Shown here: positions 381 to 61,046 of the stretch, piece by piece
Layout: each line of letters starts with the position of its first letter
How positions within the stretch are numbered: the first letter of the stretch is position 1
DNA from: an uncultured bacterium
GTDB taxonomy: Bacteria > Nitrospirota > Thermodesulfovibrionia > Thermodesulfovibrionales > CALJEL01
DNA: 64,000 bases
Direction: 5' to 3'
Assembly: GCA_938074335.1 (NCBI GenBank)
Contig: CALJEL010000013.1
Span: forward strand, 888 to 64,887
The notes under the pieces: generated by a model
What the model was told of the DNA's origin: nothing
What the model saw: only the letters and a program-made list of their open reading frames with translations
Databases searched by the model: none
Translations under genes and position numbers: made by a program

Positions 381-840
381 CCGTAATCTGCCATTAGAAA
401 TTTATAAAAAGCCTTTAATAAAACTGGCAGTCTGCCCATATTTCGGGGTTCACGGGGTGAAGCTTGTCTTCAGTCCGCGCTCTAAAGGCAATACCAGCAC
501 CCCAGAAAATCTGACGATTTTCTGGGGACCCCGCCTGCGACACCTTAGTAGAGCAGTAGAGCAACAGAGCAGCAGCGCAGCAGTTAAATAATAATATAAA
601 AAATTCCTTAATAAAAACTACTGCTCTACTGCTCTGCTGGTCTGCTGCTCTATTAATAAAAACTGCTGGTCTACTGCTCTGCTGCTCTATCAATAAAAAC
701 TACTGCACTGTTGCTCTGCTGGTCTATCTGTCGCACCGTAGCACTACTTTTGTAAGCCACAGACAAGAATGTCTGTGCTACTTGCTCTACTTCTCTACTG
801 CTCTACTGCTCTGCTGCTCTATCAATTAAGGCAATCAAAT
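381..840. repeat. Repeat locus A, a composite hairpin/octamer-array element. It contains an end motif, the 40-nt module 1, hairpin 2 and the long hairpin, whose right arm is tandemly triplicated.
   Basis: gtaatctgccat end motif at 384-395. Module 1 cggggttcacggggtgaagcttgtcttcagtccgcgctct at 444-483. Perfect 11-bp hairpin ccccagaaaat/ctgacg/attttctgggg at 500-527. TAGAGCAG-type octamer arm, AT-rich loop, then three tandem units starting ttaataaaaac / ttaataaaaac / tcaataaaaac at about 608, 653 and 690. The same modules recur at 14.1, 27.5 and 55.2 kb. Confidence 0.9.
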
Positions 841-9104: not shown

Positions 9105-10322
9105 TTACCTGTTAATTATAAAACTATCCACAATATATTTAGTAAAGGGTAAACTTGCTGTAAAGCCAGGAGAAACCGCATTTAATATATGAACACTCTC
9201 TCTATTAGATTCAATCACAAAATCATTAACGAACTCCAGGGTCCGTAAATCCATAAGCTGTGCTCTAATTCCTGCTTTAGCCCAGCTCCAAGATTTATCT
9301 ATGGGGATAGAAACTAATTTCTGGGCCTCTTTAATTAAATAATTTTTAGACCATTTTTTAATTTCTTTCAGGGCAATAGACCTTACAAGCTGATTTTTTG
9401 CTATAAGTAAAAGAAACTTTTCGGTAATTGCCAAGAACTCTTTTAATTTAAAATTTTTTACTCCTTCATAATTTTCTCTCCAAAGGCAGGGTATAGCAGT
9501 TGGCCCAATCTTAATTTTTCCATCCACTTTTACTGTAAAGTGGACACCGAGAAAGGGAGTTTTTATATCAGGGACAGGATAAATATTTCGCCTTAAAAAT
9601 TTATCTTTACCCCTGAATTCAAGATAAATTCCCTTAAAGGGGATTAAAAAGTAATTATGTCCCAAATCAAAATCCTGTGCTATTTTATCTGCATAAAGTC
9701 CACTGCTATTTATAAGCCTTTTGTATTCAAATATGTAATCTCCTGCAAGAATAGCAAACTCACCAATTCTCTTTTTATAGGGAGCATTGAAATAGAAGGT
9801 CACATCTTGATTTATAAGGTCCTTTTTAAAAGATTTTAAGACTTCAAGAGGATCAATCACAGCCGTAGAGGGGCTCCAAAGGGCATATTTGAATGTTTTG
9901 GCTACAGGTTCAATTTCCTTGAGCTCCCTTTCCTCAATTAAATAATTTCCTGCACCATTTATATCTCCTCTTCTCTTTAATTCATATAAAGTCTCTAATT
10001 CCTCTTCATTCTTAGCCACAACTACTTTACCACATTTATTTATCTTCAATCCTCTTGCCTCACAATAACTTTTTAATTCGAAATTTCCTTCCTTGGTAAA
10101 TTTAGCCTTTAAAGAATCAGGGTGATAATAAAATCCAGCATGTAACACGCCACTATTTCTCCCGCTTGCATGGAACCCGATATCTGGCTCCTTATCAATA
10201 AAACAAATTCTTTCTTCAGGAAAATATTTACGTAAATTTAATGCAATGGCTAAACCTATGACACCAGCCCCTATAACAATATAATCAGTTTGAATAATCT
10301 TTGATGATTGAAACCTGCTCAC
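9105..10322 (-). CDS. lhgO: FAD-dependent L-2-hydroxyglutarate oxidase/dehydrogenase family protein
   Basis: DYIVIGAGVIGLAIA...HASGRNSGVLHAGFYY.PDSLKAKF... is LhgO-like. I place the start at the GTG at 10322, 7 nt after AGGAGG. The track's TTG at 10391 adds an implausible leader. Confidence 0.7.
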   Translation of the reverse strand: MSRFQSSKIIQTDYIVIGAGVIGLAIALNLRKYFPEERICFIDKEPDIGFHASGRNSGVLHAGFYYHPDSLKAKFTKEGNFELKSYCEARGLKINKCGKVVVAKNEEELETLYELKRRGDINGAGNYLIEERELKEIEPVAKTFKYALWSPSTAVIDPLEVLKSFKKDLINQDVTFYFNAPYKKRIGEFAILAGDYIFEYKRLINSSGLYADKIAQDFDLGHNYFLIPFKGIYLEFRGKDKFLRRNIYPVPDIKTPFLGVHFTVKVDGKIKIGPTAIPCLWRENYEGVKNFKLKEFLAITEKFLLLIAKNQLVRSIALKEIKKWSKNYLIKEAQKLVSIPIDKSWSWAKAGIRAQLMDLRTLEFVNDFVIESNRESVHILNAVSPGFTASLPFTKYIVDSFIINR

Positions 10323-10421
10323 GAACCAACCTCCTGGTGCAGGGATAATTTTATAAAACCAGAAAGTGATACGCCAGGCTTTGATGCACAAACCATCTCT
10401 TCAGACAGGAAAACTGTATTT

Positions 10422-10462: not shown

Positions 10463-10504
10463 CAGCATACCAAGATGAATAGTCAAACCATACAGCTGAT
10501 TCAA

Positions 10505-10564
10505 CCTTAATAGAGCAGAAGAATATGGAAAATAAATTATCCCCTTGCTGCTCTACTGTAAGCC
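10505..10564. repeat. Degenerate mini-copy of the long-hairpin repeat module
   Basis: ccttaatagagcagaag ... gctgctctactgtaagcc. The outer stem TAGAGCAG/CTGCTCTA and the accttaatagagcag junction match the family at 27.58 kb. Confidence 0.6.
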
Positions 10565-13582: not shown

Positions 13583-14028
13583 CCTGAATACCTCTCTTCT
13601 ATTGATTTAATCTTCTGAAGTCTTCTCAAGTGTCGTCCACCCTCAAACTCTACTGTCATCCATGTCTTTAAGATCTCTCTCGCAAGGTCAATACCCACAA
13701 TCCTTCCACCAATAACAAGCACATTTGCATCATTATGAAGCCTTGAGAATCTCGCAGTATAAAGGTCGTTACATAAAGAGGCCCGTATATCAGGAAATTT
13801 ATTTGCTACAATGGACATCCCTATCCCTGTCCCACAGATAAGGACACCCCTATCTACGGTCTTTGATGATACAGCCAGTGAAACCTTTTCCCCAAAATCA
13901 GGATAATCAACAGACTCAGAACCCCCTGGTCCGAAATCTATACATTCATGACCCATTTCCTGAAGAACCTTCTTTAATTCTTCTTTGAGCTGAAAACCTG
14001 CATGGTCTGAGCCTATAGCAACTTTCAT
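13564..14028 (-). CDS. rpiB: Ribose-5-phosphate isomerase B
   Basis: [15 protein letters not shown]...[14 protein letters not shown] is the RpiB/LacAB family pattern. Confidence 0.9.
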
Positions 14029-14082
14029 AAATTATCATATATAAGAAATAAAAGGCCTGTCAACTGAGGTATAGATTCCCTC

Positions 14083-14458
14083 AATCTGCCGAGAAATGCA
14101 TTTTCATCGGGGTTCACGGGGTGAAGCTTGTCTTCACTCCGTGCTCTAATGGCGGGGTATGCCTCAAAGCCTTCTTAGACCAGCAGAGCAACAGTGCAGC
14201 AGAGCAGTAGTTTTTATTGATAGATCAGCAGACCAGCAGAGCAGTAGAGCAGTGGTTTTTATTAAGGAATTTTTTTAATTATTATTTAACTGCTGCGCTG
14301 CTGCTCTGTTGCTCTACTGCTCTGTTATTGCCTGTTGCTCTACTGCTCTACTGCTCTATTAAGGTGTCGCGAGCGGGGTCCCCAGAAAATCTGACGATTT
14401 TCTGGGGTGCTGATATTGCCCTTTCGGCGTTCCCCGCCATTCCTATGGCAGATTACAG
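14083..14458. repeat. Repeat locus B, the most complete copy of the composite element. It is about 375 bp and MITE-like, with terminal inverted repeats.
   Basis: The left end is aatctgccgagaaatgcatttt...aatggcggggtatgcc. The reverse complement of the right end is aatctgccataggaatggcggggaacgcc. Inside are module 1 (14108-14147), octamer-array hairpins and hairpin 2 (14380-14407). Confidence 0.8.
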
Positions 14459-14491
14459 TAAATTAATGATTCAGTAATTGAAGAGTTCTAA

Positions 14492-14821
14492 TCATGACCG
14501 AGGGGCAAACATGATAATAGCCATACCGAGTATAGCTACTACCGAGCCAGTAATATCCCACATATGCGGTCGTACGCCATCGATGAGCCAGAGCCAGAGC
14601 AATGCAGTTGCCACATAGACTCCGCCATAGGCTGCATAAACACGTCCGGCATCAGTTGGATGAAGTGTGAGCAGATAGACAAAAAGTGCAAGTGATACAG
14701 AGGCAGGTGCAAGAACCCACACAGGCGCTCGTCCTTTTATCCAGAGATAGGGGAGATAACATCCCATAATCTCTGCAATGGCAGTCAACAGGAATAGCGC
14801 CGTTGTCTTAAGTATATTCAC
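14492..14821 (-). CDS. ynfA: UPF0060 family membrane protein YnfA
   Basis: 109 aa, 4 TM, AEI.GCYL...W...[11 protein letters not shown] start with GGGAGG upstream. Confidence 0.75.
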
Positions 14822-14930
14822 TACTAACTTAAACCTCCCATGATAAAAGGTCTTATACTAATATAACAAAATTCACCGTAAGGGTAAAAAGAGCAAGAGT
14901 CAGGTTATTTAGTCCACCTTCTTACGCATC

Positions 14931-16067
14931 CTATTTTCCGAATGGACATACAGGGTATCTGCATTCCTTGCAATTAAGACATAGTCCTCCGTGACCGAGT
15001 TCTGCAAGCTCATATCTTCCAATCTTTTCTCCTGCAAGCACCCTTGGAAGGATTAAGTCAAATATAGTTATCTTATGATACATCCCGCAGGCAGGGATGC
15101 CTAAAACAGGAATGGGTGAAGGGGTGAATGGGTGAATGGGTGAAGTGGCTGTTGCACTGTCGTTCTGTCGCACTGTCGCACTAATATATGCCACCAGAAA
15201 CATAGCACCTGGCAGCACTGCCGAGCCATATGTGATATCAGTTGCCCCGAGCTTTCTGATGGCAAATCTTGTAACATCATCAGGGTCAACGGACATGCCA
15301 CCTGTGGTTATCAGGAGATCTGCACCGGCCTCAAGGAGTTCCCTGAGTCTTGCCTCAATAAACTCCACATCATCAGGTGCATAATAAATTCCCACTATCT
15401 CTCCCTGATAGGACTCTATCTTCTTTGTGATAATAGGTGCAAAAACATCCTTTATCCTTCCATAATAGACCTCATTGCCTGTGATGACCACTCCAGCCTT
15501 AGGCCTTCTTAATTCCTTAATCTCAATTACCCCTGTGCAACCATTAACACCTTGCACCTCTTCCGCAATTCTTACAGCCTTCTGAATAACTTCCTTTTTA
15601 ACTATAAGAGGGATTGCCCGTGTCCCTGCTACTACCTGTCCTTTTCTTACTACAGTATTGCTATGAAAAGTAGCACACATCACATCACCAAGCATATTAA
15701 ATCTTAATAGTGCCTCTTTGTGTATCTTTAACAATCCATCTCTTCCTGCTCTTATGTTTATCCTTCCTTCCTTTGGTTCACCCTCCATCTCCACACCTTC
15801 ACCCATCAGCGCCCGTGCAAGGCAATAGGCTGCCTCATCCTCGTGCATCTCATCAGGTCCTATACTCAATACATAAAGATTTTCCTTCCCAAGTCTTCTA
15901 AGGTGATCAATGTCCTCCTGCCTGATTATATGTCCCTTTCTGAAGGCCCTTCCTTTAAACTCTCCCTGTCTTATCTCTGTAATGTCATGGGCAAGGACAG
16001 TGCCAACCGCCTCTGTAATAGGAACTGTCTTAAGACCTTTAATCTCTTTTTCATTTACCTCACACAT
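14931..16067 (-). CDS. Molybdopterin-binding (MoCF-biosynthesis/MoeA-like) domain protein with a C-terminal Cys motif. It carries a 24-codon repeat-derived insertion.
   Basis: ITGNEVYYGRI.D...LLITTGGMSVDPDDVT...LPGAMFLVAY...GIPACGMYHK.TIFDL...GGLCLNCKECRYPVCPFGK. Confidence 0.7.
   Translation of the reverse strand: MCEVNEKEIKGLKTVPITEAVGTVLAHDITEIRQGEFKGRAFRKGHIIRQEDIDHLRRLGKENLYVLSIGPDEMHEDEAAYCLARALMGEGVEMEGEPKEGRINIRAGRDGLLKIHKEALLRFNMLGDVMCATFHSNTVVRKGQVVAGTRAIPLIVKKEVIQKAVRIAEEVQGVNGCTGVIEIKELRRPKAGVVITGNEVYYGRIKDVFAPIITKKIESYQGEIVGIYYAPDDVEFIEARLRELLEAGADLLITTGGMSVDPDDVTRFAIRKLGATDITYGSAVLPGAMFLVAYISATVRQNDSATATSPIHPFTPSPIPVLGIPACGMYHKITIFDLILPRVLAGEKIGRYELAELGHGGLCLNCKECRYPVCPFGK
15111..15182. 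repeat. Nine tandem octamers (72 nt) embedded in frame in the molybdopterin-binding gene
   Basis: Plus strand: aatgggtg aaggggtg aatgggtg aatgggtg aagtggct gttgcact gtcgttct gtcgcact gtcgcact. It encodes SATVRQNDSATATSPIHPFTPSPI. The same GTCGCACT and TTCACC motifs occur intergenically at 27.41, 41.40 and 49.02 kb. Confidence 0.9.
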
Positions 16068-25691: not shown

Positions 25692-27376
25692 GATTCAGGG
25701 ACAGAGTTAATAAGACCTCTTATATCGGAATAATCACTATCAGAGGCAGGCATAAAACCATTCTTCAATTCATCATCCAGTCTATTAAGTAACCTTATGT
25801 ATTCAGACTTTCTTGGGTCAATTTCAAGAAGGCTATTTTTGACTATCTCTACAATAGAAAAAGGTACATTTGCTCCCACAACAAGTGGGCCTGTAGGAAT
25901 AAGCCTTGATTCTGCAACTTTTTCCAGCCCCAATCTCTCATATCTTATGGCAACTGTATCCCTCACAGCACCCACATCAAACTGCCCCTTCAGAACAGCC
26001 TTGGCTACTGAGTCATAATAGTCAAAATTTTTAAATCCCGAAAGCTCACTGAGATGGATGCCATGATTTGCAAGCATATACCTTGGTATGAGATTACCTG
26101 CCGTGGATTTTACAGGGCCAAAGGCAATCCTCTTACCCTTTAAATTTGATATATCATTCAATGTGGAGCCTCTTTTTTTTACTATGATACTTCTGTAAAA
26201 ACCTGTTCCATCAATTCCCTTTGGCCTCAAGATGCATACAGCACCATAGCCTGCCCTTGCCTCAAGGTATGTGAGTGGGCCAAGAAAGGCCATATCTATC
26301 TCACCCATTCCCAGCGACTTCACTGTATCTTCGTAATCCCTTTTAACTATTAATTCAAATGAAAGCCCTGTTCTCTCGGAAAGGTAATCAAGAAGGGGCT
26401 GATATTTTTCATAGAGCAGCCTTGGATTATCCCTGGGCACCACTCCAAAATATATAATCTTTTTTGACCCTTTTTGGTTATTTTCATTCTTCACTCCCCT
26501 CAAAACCCTGTCCATCTCCCTTATGGAATCATAGGCATTATCAGAAATTATTACAAAACTATCAATCATCATGGCATTGAGTATCTTCTTACCTTTTTCA
26601 GTTTTATGCATCTTGAGAAGGATATTTCTTATATTCTCTCTGAGATCAGGCCTTATATCCCTTGTGACAATAACAGGAGGTATACCAAAAGGAGGAGATC
26701 TTTTTATAACCTTAACCTGTGATGCATAGGGAGACCCTGTTTTAAGCATGTACTCAAAAACTATGCTTTCTACAGCTGCACCATCAACCTTTCTTTTTGC
26801 TACAAGCTCTACTGATTTATTATGACTGTATGAATAGATAACCTTTTTAAAGAATTCCTCTGGCGATTTTCCTATGGTCTTCAGGAGATAAATAGGATAG
26901 AGCCTTCCGGTATTTGACCGTGGATCGGTAAAGGCAAAGGTCTTACCTTTAAGCTCTGCAAAGGAATTGATCGGACTGTCTTTATGAACTATAATGTAGG
27001 AATGATAAATAGTCTGACCATTAACCTTTGGAACTACAAGAAGCTCTACACCTAATGCCTCTCTGTCTTTCACATAAGGATAGGAACATATAAAGGCTAT
27101 CTTCACCTCACCCTTCTCAAGCAATCTATCCATCTCCTCATAAGACCTCCTGTGCACCATCTCAACAGGTATCCCCAGTTCCTCTCCGATGTAATCTACA
27201 ATCTCCTGATAGTACCTCACCGCCTCCACAGGAGTAATCATTGAGGAGACACCAATTTTCAGGACCTCATCCCTTTTAGCCTCAGCTGGTGAGAAGAAAA
27301 GCAGAATGGATAAGGCAGTGATAAATAAAAACCTTGAGCGTAAAAATTGTCCTCGCAGTAAAGCAGGCAATCTCAT
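25655..27376 (-). CDS. Secreted tandem-duplicated PhnD-like (phosphonate-binding-fold) periplasmic binding protein
   Basis: Signal peptide, then two roughly 270-aa repeats each starting ..L(K/Y)(I/F)GV.. ... Y..L.DYL....G...E......Y......L..GE.D.AF. Confidence 0.75.
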   Translation of the reverse strand: MRLPALLRGQFLRSRFLFITALSILLFFSPAEAKRDEVLKIGVSSMITPVEAVRYYQEIVDYIGEELGIPVEMVHRRSYEEMDRLLEKGEVKIAFICSYPYVKDREALGVELLVVPKVNGQTIYHSYIIVHKDSPINSFAELKGKTFAFTDPRSNTGRLYPIYLLKTIGKSPEEFFKKVIYSYSHNKSVELVAKRKVDGAAVESIVFEYMLKTGSPYASQVKVIKRSPPFGIPPVIVTRDIRPDLRENIRNILLKMHKTEKGKKILNAMMIDSFVIISDNAYDSIREMDRVLRGVKNENNQKGSKKIIYFGVVPRDNPRLLYEKYQPLLDYLSERTGLSFELIVKRDYEDTVKSLGMGEIDMAFLGPLTYLEARAGYGAVCILRPKGIDGTGFYRSIIVKKRGSTLNDISNLKGKRIAFGPVKSTAGNLIPRYMLANHGIHLSELSGFKNFDYYDSVAKAVLKGQFDVGAVRDTVAIRYERLGLEKVAESRLIPTGPLVVGANVPFSIVEIVKNSLLEIDPRKSEYIRLLNRLDDELKNGFMPASDSDYSDIRGLINSVPESCGKGCHPKIKF

Positions 27377-27410
27377 TCACACCCTTTAATTAATGCGGGC
27401 GACTGCAGGA

Positions 27411-27433
27411 CCACTGTGTCGCACTGTCGCACT
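27411..27433. repeat. Short GTCGCACT-type octamer array
   Basis: ccactgtg tcgcactg tcgcact lies just upstream of the binding-protein start codon. Confidence 0.7.
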
Positions 27434-27486
27434 TTTTATTATATTACAACAAAGGTAATAAAAAGGACAATGTATCCGCATGTCCC

Positions 27487-27695
27487 TAAACTGCCGATAG
27501 GAATGGCGGGAGATGCCGAAAAGGCAATACCAGTACCCCAGAAAATCGTCAGATTCTCTGGGGACCCCGCCTGCGACACCTTAATAGAGCAGTAGAGCAA
27601 CAGAGCAGCAGCGCAGCAGTTAAATAATAATATAAAAAATTCCTTAATAAAAACTACTGCTCTACTGGTCTGCTGGTCTGCTGCTCTATTAAGGA
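27487..27695. repeat. Repeat locus C, a half element (one terminal motif, hairpin 2 and the long octamer hairpin)
   Basis: aaactgccgataggaatggcggg end motif. Hairpin 27536-27563 (loop cgtcag). 37-nt arms at 27583-27619 and 27654-27690 (30 of 37 positions complementary by my count) around a 34-nt AT-only loop. Confidence 0.9.
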
Positions 27696-27722
27696 TAGAA
27701 ACCTATCATACAATCTGAAAGC

Positions 27723-29516
27723 TTACATCTCAATCCTTGTTAGGACTCCGTGAAGTTTTTTAGGTGGAAGCTGAAAGAAGCTGATAAAGGTTGGTGTTAC
27801 TCTCTTGATTATAGAATAGGCCTTCCATATAAGCCCCTTTGCACTTATGTCCTCAAGGCCATAAAAGATAGCCCTTTCCTCAATCCCGTTCTCTCTCAAT
27901 ATTTCCTCCACATTTACAACCTCCATATATCCCATCTGAATCTCAAAGGCCCTGATACCACAGCATAGGTCTTCCTTAAAAAATCCTGTAACACCAAAGG
28001 GATCAGGCCTTCTTACAATAGAAAGGAATATATTTTCTTCATAGATGATCCCGTGGAAAAACATGGTCTCCACTATATAGGGAGGGATCTCCTTTGCATC
28101 CTTTAAGAGAAAAAGGGCTGTGCCAGGGATTCTCGGATTCGTCCTGTAAACCCTCTCAAACTTAAGGATAAATTCATCCCTTGGCATAAAATTCATAAAT
28201 CTGTAAAGCCTCTTCTGGCCCTCTGTAAAAAGCAAGATCATCGCAAAAGGAAACATGGCAAGCACAATAGACCAGTAACCACCATGGGGTACCTTATGAA
28301 GTGTAGAGCTGAAATAGGTGATATCAATTAATGTAACAAGAGCGGCAAAAAAGGCAGGGATATATCTCTTCTTAAGAATAAATATACTAATCATGACAAG
28401 ACCTGTGATGGTCATATCACCTGTAACTGCAAGTCCATAGGCAGCCGCAAGTTTTGAGGACTGACCGAATTCAATCATAATAAATATAACTGCACCAAGC
28501 AAAAACCAGTTCACACTACCTATGTATATCTGGGACCTCAATTCCTTTGATGTATAATCAACCTTAAATACCGGCATTATCCTTGTGGTGATTGCCTGAT
28601 AAACAATACTGAACATCCCGCTAATCATTGCCTGGGAGGCTATAATCGTGGCTGATATGCTCAGCAAAAGAAAAGGCACATAAAGAAGAGGGACTGCCTT
28701 TAACGCCATCTCAAAAAGTATATTCTTTGCCTCAGGATGGGCAAGGAGAAAGGCACCCTGACCAAAATAATTTATTGTGAGTGTTATAAATACAAAGACC
28801 CAGGCCTCCCTTATGGGTCTTGAACCAAGGTGTCCCATATCAGCATACATTGCCTCACTACCTGTTGCACAGAGTATAACCTCTCCAAGAATCAGATAAC
28901 CTTTCCAGCCACTATTCAGAAGGAACTGAATGGCATACCATGGATTCACCGCCTTCAGAATCGATGGATTCTTAAATATAAAATTGAGCCCCAGAAGCAA
29001 TAAAGAAAAAAACCATATAACCATCACAGGGCCAAAGGCAAAGGCAACCTTTTCCGTCCCCTTTTTCTGAAAGGCAAATAGAAGAACGGCTATGAGTATT
29101 GATATCAGGACAATTATTGTCTGGGATATACCCTCAAGACCTGGTATAAGGGCAGAACCTTCCACAGCACTGAGGATACTTATGGCAGGGGTTATAACAC
29201 CATCACCCATAAGGAGTGAAACACCAACAAAGGATAGAAGCGCAACTGCTGTCTTTGATTTAAGGGATTTTAAAAGAGATTTAAATATCTCTGCAAGGAC
29301 GATCGTACCACCCTCACCTCTTATACTCAAACTCATGGCAAGGACATTGTATTGAATGGTTGGTAAAAACACGAGGGTCCAGAATATTAAAGATAGAACT
29401 CCGATAATATTTATCTCTGTTGGCTCAAGGATTAAAAACACAACGGTAACTGTATATATAGGGCTTGTTCCTATATCACCAAAGACAAGTCCGAGTGCCT
29501 TAATTATTCCAGCCAT
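27723..29516 (-). CDS. kup: KUP-family potassium uptake transporter
   Basis: LGLVFGDIGTSPIYT... and 12 TM plus a cytoplasmic C-terminal domain. Confidence 0.9.
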   Translation of the reverse strand: MAGIIKALGLVFGDIGTSPIYTVTVVFLILEPTEINIIGVLSLIFWTLVFLPTIQYNVLAMSLSIRGEGGTIVLAEIFKSLLKSLKSKTAVALLSFVGVSLLMGDGVITPAISILSAVEGSALIPGLEGISQTIIVLISILIAVLLFAFQKKGTEKVAFAFGPVMVIWFFSLLLLGLNFIFKNPSILKAVNPWYAIQFLLNSGWKGYLILGEVILCATGSEAMYADMGHLGSRPIREAWVFVFITLTINYFGQGAFLLAHPEAKNILFEMALKAVPLLYVPFLLLSISATIIASQAMISGMFSIVYQAITTRIMPVFKVDYTSKELRSQIYIGSVNWFLLGAVIFIMIEFGQSSKLAAAYGLAVTGDMTITGLVMISIFILKKRYIPAFFAALVTLIDITYFSSTLHKVPHGGYWSIVLAMFPFAMILLFTEGQKRLYRFMNFMPRDEFILKFERVYRTNPRIPGTALFLLKDAKEIPPYIVETMFFHGIIYEENIFLSIVRRPDPFGVTGFFKEDLCCGIRAFEIQMGYMEVVNVEEILRENGIEERAIFYGLEDISAKGLIWKAYSIIKRVTPTFISFFQLPPKKLHGVLTRIEM

Positions 29517-41392: not shown

Positions 41393-41446
41393 CGACACCT
41401 TAGTAGTGCGAAAAGTGCTACCGCCTATCCCTTCACCTCTTCACCT
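41393..41446. repeat. Relic of the octamer-repeat family in the pnp-downstream spacer
   Basis: cgacaccttagtagtgcgaaaagtgctaccgcctatcccttcacctcttcacct shares the junction cgacacctta with loci A and C. A GTGCGA-type block is followed by a TTCACC-type block, in the same order as in the 15111-15182 insert. Confidence 0.6.
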
Positions 41447-48960: not shown

Positions 48961-49036
48961 ATTAGAGCGACCGTGCAATTGTGCTACAGCACTACAGATT
49001 AGAGTGACCGTGCAATTGTCGCTCTGTCGCACTGTC
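48961..49036. repeat. Two direct 23-nt copies plus a GACAGNGC-type octamer run. It spans the ispE/pabB convergent gap and the pabB 3' end.
   Basis: attagagcgaccgtgcaattgtg (48961-48983) and attagagtgaccgtgcaattgtc (48998-49020), followed by gctctgtcgcactgtcg. Confidence 0.8.
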
Positions 49037-50071
49037 GTGAAATGCCTTCATCTTCAGATAAAGCTCTGATAGTTCCTTCTCTGGCACAGAATCCCAGACT
49101 ATTCCACAACCTGCATAATAGGACAATCTATTACCACTGCCTATGGCTGTCCTTATAAGGACAGAAAGGACAAAATCTCCATCTGACCTTAAAAGCCCTG
49201 CACAGCCACAGTAATAGCTCCTTGGATGGGGCTCAAGACCCTCTATTATCTCCACTGCCTTCCGCTTGGGTGCACCTGTAACAGAGGCCGGTGGAAAGGT
49301 TGCCTTGAGTATATCCACAATCTCTTTATCTGTAATTGCCTCAACTGTTGAATGCATCTGAAAAAGGGTCTGGTATCCTGTAATCTTGAAGAGTTCTGTT
49401 ACCCTCACACTGCCATTCCTTGCAATCCTGCCAAGGTCATTTCTCATCATATCTGTAATCATGAGGTTCTCAGCCTTATCCTTTTCGCTGTTTATAAGTG
49501 CCTGGGCTGTGGTAGCTGTACCTTTTATGGGTTTGCTCCTTATAATGCTGCCCTCCTTTTGAAGGAATAACTCCATGGAGCCCGAGATAATATAAAAATC
49601 ACCTGCATTGAAACAGAATGAATAAGGCACAGGCTGGCTATGGTGAAATCTATAAAATAAGGACTCAGGGAAGCCATCAAGCTCAAAATCAAATCTATTT
49701 GTCAGATTCACCTGATAGATTATTCCCTCAGCTATGAGTTCCTTTATCTTCAGTACAGAGTTTTTATAATCATCATCATTGAGAGAGGCTCCCTTTAAAG
49801 AAAGCCTGCAGGGGTAAATCTCCGGGGATGTTTCATTAAAATCATTCACTTCAATGAGGGCAACAGGAGGAAGATCTGATTTTTTTATGTTAAGATCAAG
49901 TAATCCTCCCGAGAGGTCATAGGAGAGTATGATAAAATAATCTTTATTAAAAAAGGAAAATCTTCCGAGGTCATCAAGATTATTAAAAAATCTCAGACTG
50001 CCTGTGTCTGCCCTGTAAAAAAGGCCTTTATCTCTCTTAAGCCAGGTCCCGTTGAGTAGCAAATCTTTCAT
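48992..50071 (-). CDS. pabB: Chorismate-binding enzyme, short aminodeoxychorismate synthase component I type
   Basis: SGSMELF...PIKGT...MITDMMRNDLGR...PPASVTGAPK..A...I..LE...R..YCG. It lies directly upstream of a class-IV aminotransferase-fold gene. Confidence 0.7.
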   Translation of the reverse strand: MKDLLLNGTWLKRDKGLFYRADTGSLRFFNNLDDLGRFSFFNKDYFIILSYDLSGGLLDLNIKKSDLPPVALIEVNDFNETSPEIYPCRLSLKGASLNDDDYKNSVLKIKELIAEGIIYQVNLTNRFDFELDGFPESLFYRFHHSQPVPYSFCFNAGDFYIISGSMELFLQKEGSIIRSKPIKGTATTAQALINSEKDKAENLMITDMMRNDLGRIARNGSVRVTELFKITGYQTLFQMHSTVEAITDKEIVDILKATFPPASVTGAPKRKAVEIIEGLEPHPRSYYCGCAGLLRSDGDFVLSVLIRTAIGSGNRLSYYAGCGIVWDSVPEKELSELYLKMKAFHDSATERQLHGHSNL

Positions 50072-55195: not shown

Positions 55196-55335
55196 ATAAC
55201 TGAGCAGTAGAGCAACAGAGCAACAGTTAAATAATAATATAAAAAATTCCTTAATAAAAACTACTGCTCTACTGCTCTGCTGGTCTAAGAAGACTTTGAG
55301 GCATACCCCGCCATTAAAAATGCATTTCTATCACC
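55196..55335. repeat. Repeat locus D, the complementary half element (long octamer hairpin plus the other terminal motif, without module 1)
   Basis: gagcagtagagcaacagagcaacagttaaataataatataaaaaattccttaataaaaactactgctctactgctctgctggtctaagaagactttgaggcataccccgccattaaaaatgcatttc. This equals the reverse complement of the left part of locus B, minus the 40-nt module 1. Confidence 0.9.
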
Positions 55336-55416
55336 AAATTTAGGTGAATAATTTCTTATTATAATGCTGGCACAGAGGCAGGTTGATTGAGAGCCTTATC
55401 CACAAATTTTTGCCTT

Positions 55417-55446
55417 GTAAGGGGCAATTCATGAATTGCCCCTTAC
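55417..55446 (-). terminator. Perfect 30-nt palindrome directly after the small ORF at 55450
   Basis: gtaaggggcaattcatgaattgccccttac. There is no clear U-tract, so the terminator function is inferred. Confidence 0.5.
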
Positions 55447-55449
55447 AAA

Positions 55450-55659
55450 CTATATTAATATAATGCCATAATAGTAGCAGCAGAGTTCATTATCAAGGTC
55501 ATTGATAAAGGTCCTCTCTATTCCGTCTTCAAAGGCGATTCTCACAAAACAAAACCCACCTTCCAGAATAGAATGTCTTTCCTCAATAACCTCACCGACA
55601 CCCCATTCATGATTCTTTTTGTGCAATACCCTGTCACCGACCTTGAGATATAGTCTCAA
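55450..55659 (-). CDS. Small 69-aa protein, possibly a Tudor/SH3-like DUF3553-type fold
   Basis: The N-terminus VGDRVLHKKNHEWGVGEVIE resembles the GD.V.H..(F/W)G.G.V motif. Otherwise unassigned. Confidence 0.4.
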   Translation of the reverse strand: MRLYLKVGDRVLHKKNHEWGVGEVIEERHSILEGGFCFVRIAFEDGIERTFINDLDNELCCYYYGIILI

Positions 55660-60431: not shown

Positions 60432-61046
60432 CTATACATACAGACCTCCATGTCGTTGCCCCCCTGCTCTTATATAATATTCATGCATAATTAGTCTTCT
60501 CTTTAATTCTATGCCGAGGTTATAACCACATAAGGCTCCTCCGCTTCCCACTATCCTGTGACAGGGTATCACAATAGGTAAGGGATTTTTCTTGAGTGCC
60601 TGACCTACGGCCCTGCAAGCAGAGGGAATCCCTATCTGCCTTGCGAGCCAACCATAGGTCCTTGTTTCTCCAAAAGGTATCCCTTTCAGTTTATGCCAGA
60701 CAGAAAGCTCAAATTCAGAAAAATATGAGATTTCCTCTTTAAGGTCAAGGACTGTCCTTAATTGAAAGGAAACCCTTTTACCGGAAAAATATTCCATGAA
60801 CTGAGAATGGATATATTCCGGTAACTTTTTCCTTTTAACCCTCGGTTCAGGGCCGCACTCATACCCCGAAAAATCTGACAATTTTGAGACCCCGCTTTTT
60901 TTAAAATAAAAAGGAAATCTCTTTTCTATTACTTCACCTGAAAGGGCAGTAGATATTCCGTAGAGAATCTCCTCATCAAAAAGGATAGAAAAGCTACCAA
61001 ATATCGTATCTATCTCATCAAGGCAAAGGATCTTGTCATTATCCAT
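60432..61046 (-). CDS. ogt: Methylated-DNA--protein-cysteine methyltransferase (Ogt/MGMT)
   Basis: C-terminal VW..L..IPFGETRTYG.LA......RAVG.A...NPLPIVIPCHRIV with the PCHR active site. The N-terminal domain is longer than usual. Confidence 0.85.
   Translation of the reverse strand: MDNDKILCLDEIDTIFGSFSILFDEEILYGISTALSGEVIEKRFPFYFKKSGVSKLSDFSGYECGPEPRVKRKKLPEYIHSQFMEYFSGKRVSFQLRTVLDLKEEISYFSEFELSVWHKLKGIPFGETRTYGWLARQIGIPSACRAVGQALKKNPLPIVIPCHRIVGSGGALCGYNLGIELKRRLIMHEYYIRAGGQRHGGLYV
60855..60897. repeat. Decayed copy of hairpin module 2, inside the ogt reading frame
   Basis: gcactcataccccgaaaaatctgacaattttgagaccccgc aligns with cagcaccccagaaaatctgacgattttctggggaccccgc of locus A. It encodes ...KKSGVSKLSDFSGYECG... 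Confidence 0.6.

Follow-up and report, generated by a model that had tools for sequence, protein, structure and literature searches.

Bacterial miniature inverted-repeat transposable elements (MITEs) include Correia/NEMIS of Neisseria, ERIC/IRU, RUP, Nezha and Chunjie. The pneumococcal BOX element has the structure boxA–boxB(n)–boxC, in which the end modules pair with each other and the middle varies in number; it is intergenic and thought to be mobilized in trans. Here, we analyze an intergenic element (termed B; positions 14078–14463) in a stretch of 64,000 nucleotides from an uncultured bacterium of the Thermodesulfovibrionales (Nitrospirota; CALJEL01), i.e., positions 888–64,887 of contig CALJEL010000013.1 in assembly GCA_938074335.1, which is called the window below. 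Element B and three further loci of the window (A, C and D) are probably copies of a lineage-specific, non-autonomous and gene-less family of MITE-like elements, which are bounded by inverted repeats and have a swappable hairpin interior.

Like MITEs, these elements are small (140–460 nt), non-coding and intergenic, carry terminal inverted repeats and can fold as a whole into a hairpin, and they are multi-copy, polymorphic between close strains and without a transposase nearby. Unlike in MITEs, the flanking repeats are not consistent in length, the two ends do not share their outermost 5 nt, and the interior consists of interchangeable hairpins, including ones with tandem-octamer arms, instead of a fixed sequence. 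The modular construction, the pairable conserved ends, the middle that varies in repeat number and the stable whole-element hairpin resemble those of BOX, whereas the sequence is unrelated, the middle is an inverted pair of 8-nt arrays and small hairpins are optional. No match to a known element family was found in Rfam, in plasmid and phage collections or in viral contigs.

In Geobacter metallireducens, 24 opposite-strand pairs of sites, each composed of four tandem GTTGCTYN octamers, have been described together with other paired 7–9-mer classes and with GGACCGG x4 arrays within and between genes (PMC2700814). These arrays were proposed, without experiment, to be sites for global regulators of the IHF/HU type, and IS481- and IS110-family insertion sequences lie at a fixed distance from the class-1 sites (PMC2700814). 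The paired GTTGCTYN x4 sites are the nearest published parallel to the hairpins analyzed here, as compared by description only. In both cases, about four tandem octamers with a TGCT core (GTTGCTYN there, RYTGCTCT here) form opposite-strand pairs, several unrelated 7–9-mer classes occur per genome, and some arrays lie in genes. The two differ in phylum, in spacing, which is variable there and given by a conserved 34-nt AT loop here, in outer termini, which are not described there, and in the insertion sequences at fixed distance, none of which is seen here.

Anatomy of the Elements

Element B has inverted ends (left, AATCTGCCGAG..., then ...AATGGCGGGGTATGCC; right, GGCGTTCCCCGCCATTCCTATGGCAGATT), which form the inverted pairs AATCTGCC/GGCAGATT and AATGGCGGGGTATGCC/GGCGTTCCCCGCCATT. 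Such ends, with three hairpin modules between them, had been proposed in an initial annotation of the window for 14083–14458; the span is widened here because the conserved terminus motif begins ~5 nt further out. The ends are real: a terminus sequence model (R1) matches only at element ends and finds an inverted pair in B and in two elements of a sister genome (L018a and L018b; see below). The three hairpins were all located and fold strongly; they are termed H1, H2 and the long hairpin (LH).

14078–14463, minus strand: element B, two-ended, recognized by its modules, inverted termini (model R1) and nested fold
B, left half, read on the plus strand: left terminus T_L 14078–14105; H1 14107–14146; E2 box 14147–14178; two left octamer arms 14179–14255; AT loop 14256–14289
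B, right half, read on the plus strand: right octamer arms 14290–14364; linker 14365–14379; H2 14380–14407; E1 box 14408–14443; right terminus T_R 14440–14459(+4)

All module coordinates were verified by string search, and the module order is given in the orientation of A, C and D, relative to which B is inverted. The full order is terminus (T), box E1, H2, linker, LH, box E2, AAAATGCATTTCT and inverted T, and element size ranges from 147 to 460 nt. T is ~20 nt long with the consensus CCnTAAnnTGCC(G)ATAGrAA, also given as CCnTAAnnTGCCGATAG, and is adjoined by the sub-terminal box AATGGCGGGGwayGCC. Box E1 (GGAATGGCGGGGaayGCCGAAAaGGCAATAyCAG) and box E2 (AAGAAGrCTTTGAGGCATACCCCGCCATTA) are complementary to each other through a GGCGGGG/CCCCGCC core. 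H2 is CCCCAGAAAATC-4 nt-GATTyTCTGGGG and is joined to LH by the linker ACCCCGCCTGCGACACCTTAaTAG. Each arm of LH is a tandem array of about four octamers (AGCAGYAG in one arm, CTRCTGST in the opposite one), and the two arms enclose a conserved 34-nt loop that is rich in AT (TTAAATAATAATATAAAAAATTCCTTAATAAAAA). Tandem-repeat finding (TRF) gives these arms as inverted pairs of CTACTGCT/AGAGCAGC arrays with 3.2–5.4 copies per arm; the units conform to RYTGCTCT, GTTGCTCT being among them. The terminus alignment comprises 18 instances, and a motif scan for termini yielded 2–5 matches per pattern in the window, as compared with 0.4–1.75 in shuffled sequences.

As the two ends are inverted, the whole element is able to extrude as a single long hairpin. 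B forms one nested hairpin on either strand, with RNA folding energies of -178.6 (+) and -162.8 (-) kcal/mol (z -9.5 and -11) and a DNA z of -10. Within it, H1 has a 12-bp stem (DNA fold z -7.3), H2 has a perfect 12-bp stem (z -6.4), and LH occupies 14179–14364. B is flanked by the stop codon of ynfA and the promoter of rpiB (TTGACA-18-TATGAT, 14063 to 14034); this promoter lies outside the element and is kept in relatives. A sigma-54 or sigma-70 promoter or a terminator within the element was considered and rejected: no -24/-12 spacing was seen by eye, and the scan that places the rpiB promoter outside B gave no terminators. All major copies had also been described as intergenic. The family is non-coding, and an element-encoded peptide is ruled out: open reading frames (ORFs) spanning A and B are alike merely because the DNA is alike, and the frame is not kept in C or L018a.

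Copies in the Window

Modules are common to loci A–D in both orientations at 87–96% identity, as seen by repeat finding and BLAST. The pairwise alignments are A/C (173 nt, 95%, E 3e-77), A/B (139 nt, 93%, E 3e-52), B/C (104 nt, 95%, E 3e-43), and B/D and A/D (78 nt, 92–96%, E 2e-25 to 2e-32). The termini, boxes, H1, H2 and the 34-nt loop are 90–100% identical between loci, so that non-repetitive parts are conserved as well as the simple-sequence arms, and the likeness is not a low-complexity coincidence. The copies show no fixed orientation with respect to the transcription around them. A is located between divergent genes, C is flanked by the kup stop codon and a phnD-like gene, and D separates the aspartate kinase promoter region from a small conserved ORF that has a terminator-like hairpin of its own.

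381–840, plus strand: element A, recognized by BLAST, tandem-repeat periods (37 x2.8; 8) and homology of its terminus to the right terminus of L018a
A, first part: long-form terminus 381–430 (with hairpin CTGCC...GGCAG); H1 443–482; H2 500–527; linker 528–549
A, long hairpin 550–654: left arm 550–583, loop 584–617, right arm 618–654
A, last part: 37-nt arm units 655–691 and 692–728; TGTCGCAC-type octamers 729–747; small hairpin 758–777; CTACTKCT array 778–823
27484–27722, plus strand: element C, recognized by its modules, fold and terminus alignment
C, modules: terminus 27484–27503; E1 box 27504–27535; H2 27536–27563 (loop GTCA, flipped); linker 27564–27585; long hairpin 27586–27694
55200–55346, plus strand: element D, one-ended, recognized by its modules, model R1 and fold (z -5.0)
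D, modules: long hairpin 55200–55286 (3 octamers per arm); E2 box 55287–55316; degenerate terminus 55317–55346 (GGTGATAG)

The module contents previously assigned to A, C and D are as claimed, with some additions. C has a second end, a degenerate inverted terminus (27695–27722) that adjoins the kup stop codon (27723), and its long hairpin has a DNA folding energy of -29.6 kcal/mol (z -8.2). A is one-ended, without a second terminus, and carries extra octamer arrays (729–823) and two additional 37-nt units of the form 'AATAAAAAC + octamers'; in B, two arm units lie on each side (periods 37 and 45). H1 and H2 are present or absent independently of each other from copy to copy. H1 occupies the end region of B, is missing in D at the unoccupied junction CATTTT|TAATGGCG, and in A precedes H2, with its orientation relative to LH reversed. 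The 4-nt loop of H2 is TGAC or GTCA among copies in the same element orientation (window 500–527, 14380–14407 and 27536–27563; L018:11694–11721), which may be read as a signature of hairpin-loop or whole-palindrome flipping at the DNA level, as in small hairpin inversions elsewhere.

Three relics had also been noted, and each scored above all of 400 random segments of the window.

10504–10558, plus strand: relic 1, a minimal long hairpin, ACCTTAATAGAGCAG ... CTGCTCTACTG, with 1 octamer per arm and an unrelated loop
41393–41446, plus strand: relic 2, downstream of pnp, with linker CGACACCTTAGTAG, a GTAGTGC/GTGCTAC hairpin and CTTCACCT x2 octamers (0/400)
60863–60895, plus strand: relic 3, H2-like ACCCCGAAAAATCTGACAATTTTGAGACCCCGC

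Relic 1 scores 16.5 against a null maximum of 11.5 (0/400) and has a weak fold (z -1.5). Relic 3 scores 17 against a null maximum of 11 (0/400) and lies in the poorly conserved N-terminal half of an ogt-like (methylguanine-methyltransferase-like) ORF (60432–61046, minus strand); it may be an old intragenic insertion. Relic 1 is immediately upstream of a gene for a 428-aa FAD-dependent oxidoreductase of the DAO family (9105–10391, minus strand), which is located between truD and a crp-like gene and is missing from the syntenic region of L011–L013.

Beside D, a conserved 69-aa ORF of unassigned function (55450–55659, minus strand) lies between a response regulator and aspartate kinase in all relatives; in the window, it is followed by a perfect GC-rich hairpin, GTAAGGGGCAATTCATGAATTGCCCCTTAC (55417–55449).

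Filled and Empty Sites in Related Genomes

Two closer genomes, GCA_041082235.1 (loci L009 and L018) and GCA_046292975.1 (loci L016 and L055), are 86–93% identical to the window at the DNA level. Both have the family, at other places and with other interiors.

L018:11533–11800 (L018a, 268 nt): between convergent priA and ribF; both inverted termini and H2
L018:1938–2145 (L018b, 208 nt): between the aspartate kinase stop codon and leuA; core of the L018a type, both termini, no H2
L016:6941–7215: terminus, then a different large hairpin
L055:11797–end: at the orthologue of the C site, directly past the kup stop codon; terminus, then a different large hairpin

At four sites, an element is present in one genome and lacking in another. 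The aspartate kinase/leuA site is filled in L018 and empty in L016, the window and L049. There, L018b is flanked by a 15-bp direct repeat, TCAGGATATTGCAAT, which is present as a single copy without an element in L016; this is the cleanest insertion signature found. Alternative boundaries for L018b give a 6-bp duplication, GGATAT, with ends TGCAAT.../...TTTCA. The priA/ribF site is filled in L018 and empty in the window, where priA and ribF overlap; L018a is flanked by TCATAA/TCATAA when its ends are drawn as CCCTC...ACWG. The leuA/dcd site is filled in L016 only, and the site upstream of rpiB is filled in the window only. No clean empty site was obtained for B, as the gene content of L009 differs there, ynfA being missing. 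The comparison of insertion sites among relatives, which the initial annotation had put forward as a check, thus yields filled and empty sites, one of them with a flanking direct repeat.

The interiors differ between genomes as well. In L018a, a core with the hairpin CTTCACCCAAAAGGTGAAGG replaces LH, and the H2 stem has a G-C to A-T double change; in L016 and L055, the large hairpin has GTGCGACA/TGTCGCAC octamers around the loop CTACAAGGAACGTTTAAACTTCCATAAATAC. The family had been described as one full copy with several complementary half copies; with H1 and H2 varying independently and LH replaced in relatives, it is better described as conserved ends with an interchangeable interior.

Assemblies tend to break at these elements: the L016 and L055 contigs end within them, and a Logan contig with an aspartate kinase identical to that of the window stops inside LH of D. 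For the boundaries of D, orthologous sites give no guide: the region upstream of aspartate kinase is hypervariable in L016 and L018, and in L049 and L052 it has diverged too far. At the orthologue of the D site in L016 (3900–3935), just a 34-nt palindrome, CCCTGTATTAGTGATTACACATCACAGATTAGGG, is present, with arms that look like two inverted termini and hardly any sequence in between; this may be an element reduced to its minimum or what is left after excision or deletion. A further occurrence of the 8-mer GATTACAC lies at L018:~3800. Other intergenic palindromic repeats of the relatives, unrelated to the family, are TAAGGCTACAGGCTTCAGG/CAGGCCTTAAGTCTATAGCCTGAG and GGGGCAACGCCCCTCAAGCTCCCC ... 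GGGGCGAAAAACCCCTTTGAGCT (L009:9440–9515, L011:9420–9445, L018:1–110).

Distribution of the Family

The window has a G+C content of ~41%, and the best named matches of its GlyA, aspartate kinase and Kup are to Thermodesulfovibrionales/Nitrospirota metagenome-assembled genomes (MAGs). Neither the modules nor the terminus (model R1) were found in ~75 kb of non-redundant sequence from relatives at ~90–94% protein identity (L011–L014, L049–L054 and L056). By contrast, the MAG CALGPO01, which is distant from the window (47–57% protein identity on two syntenic genes), has three copies of LH with a core ~90–95% identical to that of the window; two of them adjoin the same terminus motif. In CALGPO01, LH occurs without the GGCGGGG boxes or H2, and across distant genomes the AT loop is better conserved than the arms. 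One of the CALGPO01 loci has a ~120-nt insertion in the AT loop of LH (L008:245–365), a tandem pair of CCTGTCTGCGTGCAACGCACAGGCAGGCC-type palindromes, which shows nested insertion of another repeat family.

In species-representative genomes, the LH loop pattern was found in one carrier MAG only, the rest being chance AT-rich matches. In JGI metagenomes, the loop/arm pattern gave 0 matches and the H2-flank pattern gave 30, all chance matches on contigs of 61–76% GC without the hairpin. Both patterns gave 0 matches in viral contigs, and blastn of B against plasmid and phage collections gave no match. Judged from these scans and from the relatives, the family is lineage-specific, as had been suspected, and appears restricted to a few uncultured Thermodesulfovibrionales genomes. 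That a tight clade and a distant genome carry it, while intermediate relatives do not, points to recent proliferation. Within this limited sample, horizontal spread is a likely cause of the patchy distribution, rather than ancient vertical inheritance.

Octamer Arrays Within and Outside the Elements

Arrays of period 8 account for 17 of the 44 tandem-repeat rows of the window, and three octamer families recur. The first, AGCAGTAG, is found in LH; the second, GTGCGACA, in the L016/L055 hairpin, at window positions 27395–27432 and 49003–49037, and in A; and the third, GGGTGAAT/GGTGAAGG, in H1, in the L018 core and at window position 41431. Arrays are seen in three settings: in hairpins of terminus-bounded elements, on their own, and in frame in stretches that encode protein loops.

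27395–27432, plus strand: octamer-type hairpin remnant GCGAC/GTCGCAC, immediately left of C, of the octamer family carried by the L016/L055 hairpin
49003–49037, plus strand: TGTCGCAC-type octamer array between ispE and a chorismate-binding gene; the spacer length varies among relatives
15110–15182, plus strand: unpaired in-frame arrays, GAATGGGT x4.4 followed by CTGTCGCA x4.2, inside a MoCF-biosynthesis-like gene (14931–16067, minus strand)

When translated, the nine octamers (72 nt) at 15110–15182 form part of a hypervariable loop that is flanked by AMFLVAYI and IPVLGIPAC. This loop is shorter by exactly three octamers (24 nt, 8 aa) in L009, the closest relative, and is different and longer in the more distant L056. 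In CALGPO01, (ATGGGTGA)x4 lies within an ORF of 1018 residues. Arrays of GGGTGAAT (x4.1) are also present in CALGPO01 at L006:6348–6380 and L008:2650–2682, one in a 1018-aa ORF and the other just past the stop codon of a TPR gene; their presence in a distant MAG indicates that octamer families are common to distant genomes independently of the inverted-repeat element.

A bolder and rather improbable idea is that the novelty lies in the octamer-array hairpins and not in the inverted ends: these hairpins would constitute a distinct class of bacterial repeats, made or bound by dedicated protein machinery that would be shared with the GTTGCTYN, TCTCCGTS and heptamer arrays of G. metallireducens, the terminus-bounded element being just one vehicle. 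Such a class would have about four tandem 8-nt units per arm and several unrelated flavors per genome (AGCAGTAG, GTGCGACA and GGGTGAAT here).

Alternative Explanations

Several observations weigh against a MITE-like family. Neither a transposase nor a gene flanked by the termini is seen in the window or across ~250 kb from related loci, and B and C are the only two-ended copies in the window. The outermost ends are unequal throughout (CCCTC... versus ...ACWGT), with the outermost 5 nt differing, which is atypical for simple inverted-repeat transposons. The flanking repeat varies in length (15 bp or 6 bp by end placement), there is a single clean filled/empty comparison, and the flanks of B match at 5 of 6 positions (TAGATT/TAAATT, ends drawn as CCCTC...ACWG). 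As octamer arrays also occur without termini and in genes, transposition may not be the process by which all of the similarity spreads.

Alternatively, the termini, small palindromes and octamer arrays may be separate short repeats that are maintained by the host and clustered in intergenic regions, as in bacterial interspersed mosaic elements (BIMEs). The units might serve as arrays to which a nucleoid-associated or regulatory protein binds, or might be hairpins like those of repetitive extragenic palindromic (REP) sequences with a RAYT-type enzyme, and could spread by recombination or gene conversion. Free combination of modules, arms that are often unequal or unpaired, arrays that stand alone or within genes, and the greater conservation of the AT loop than of the arms across distant genomes are all consistent with such a mosaic, as are the 24 inverted pairs of four tandem octamers, the other 7–9-mer classes and the intragenic heptamers of G. 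metallireducens (PMC2700814). REP/BIME and REPIN-RAYT systems resemble the present elements in forming intergenic palindrome mosaics and inverted doublets that fold into long hairpins, in strain-specific abundance and in some intragenic copies (PMC3733652, PMC3116915). However, REP sequences are defined as imperfect palindromes of 20–40 nt, one foot of which bears a conserved GTAG (or CGTC) tag (PMC3733652), whereas the units here are larger and have conserved outer termini, and no RAYT is seen in the window. The REP tag is absent from any fixed foot position: H1 and H2 have CACGGGG and CCCCAG at their feet, and GTAG occurs only within the repeated octamer AGCAGTAG. In addition, the terminus is located at element edges in inverted pairs and is not scattered, the 208-nt unit of L018b is gained or missing as a whole, along with a flanking repeat, and there is no conserved placement with respect to promoters, the sites differing between sister genomes. 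We consider a host-maintained mosaic, the main rival explanation, unlikely, while giving it appreciable weight.

It is much less probable that the loci are structured non-coding RNAs or cis-acting RNA hairpins (terminators, attenuators or mRNA stabilizers) kept for their RNA fold, an option that the initial annotation had mentioned and that finds no support here. The folds are very stable, copies often lie just 3' of stop codons, and one compensatory G-C to A-T change distinguishes H2 of the window from that of L018. That single compensatory pair does not make the covariation of H2 significant, as 130 of 500 shuffles reach the observed score, and in a direct reading of C arm mismatches are not biased to G-U on one strand. 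Across the whole window, no Rfam family attains its gathering score; when matches up to E<=1 are admitted, all that appear are models of eukaryotic miRNA precursors, at under half their thresholds. Terminator-like sites with T tracts are absent from 13900–14900 and 27300–27800, copies take both orientations relative to flanking transcription (A lying between divergent genes), and sister genomes differ in presence or absence at the same genes. Simple 8-nt repeats in the arms and assemblies that tend to break there could be taken to indicate chance similarity of CAG/CTG-rich low complexity or an assembly artefact, for which the probability is negligible: non-repetitive modules are 90–100% identical between loci, none of the 400 random segments reaches the relics, and the same modules are present in independently assembled genomes from other samples. 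Chance similarity is excluded, and with it the possibility, raised initially, that only low complexity is shared.

DNA uptake sequences are motifs of 9–12 nt that occur in hundreds of copies in genes and terminators alike, without a larger conserved context. An element of this type, also raised initially, does not fit: the units here are composites of 140–460 nt, few in number and almost all intergenic.

Proposed Life Cycle and Significance

For the MITE-like family, we propose the following life cycle. A transposase encoded elsewhere in the genome would act in trans, recognizing the termini and inserting the element mostly just past stop codons or between operons, at times with a direct repeat left on either side; insertion just 3' of stop codons may be preferred. 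The interior would then change by octamer slippage and tandem duplication of 37–45-nt arm units, by flipping of hairpin loops and by nested gain or loss of modules. Finally, internal deletion would turn copies into one-ended forms (A and D) and relics. An effect on the host, such as transcript 3'-end hairpins or insulation between operons, is possible.

As previously reported for the window, no transposase is present: transposase, integrase and RAYT genes were not found, and only housekeeping families were identified (NCBIfam or Pfam, for 40 of the 57 called ORFs, nearly all large ones included). The ISTde1 subgroup of IS1202 produces direct repeats of 15–17 bp and has been reported from 'Nitrospira' among many groups (bioRxiv 10.1101/2022.12.17.520857). 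Several termini (the right end of B, L016 and L055) begin with TGTAA, comparable to the TGT ends of IS481, IS3 and IS1202, and one element has a 15-bp flanking repeat, as in ISTde1. Unlike in those families, other termini begin with CTC or CTA and flanking repeats are 6 or 15 bp, and no such transposase was found in the sequence covered; IS481, IS3 or IS1202 (ISTde1) as partner of the family may thus serve as a lead only.

The part rated as new relative to known families is the octamer-array hairpin interior in three flavors. The value of the finding lies chiefly in genome annotation and mobile-element biology, and it does not change the understanding of any major pathway. If the proposal of a MITE-like family is right, it would add a new mobile-repeat family for the Thermodesulfovibrionales, an uncultured and environmentally widespread order, would account for assembly breaks at particular intergenic sites, and would make the filled and empty sites usable as strain-level markers. 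The likeness of the tandem-octamer hairpins to the Geobacter arrays hints at a broader repeat type that is able to sit in frame in genes, and conserved ends combined with swappable hairpin interiors would show how miniature elements acquire and exchange internal modules.

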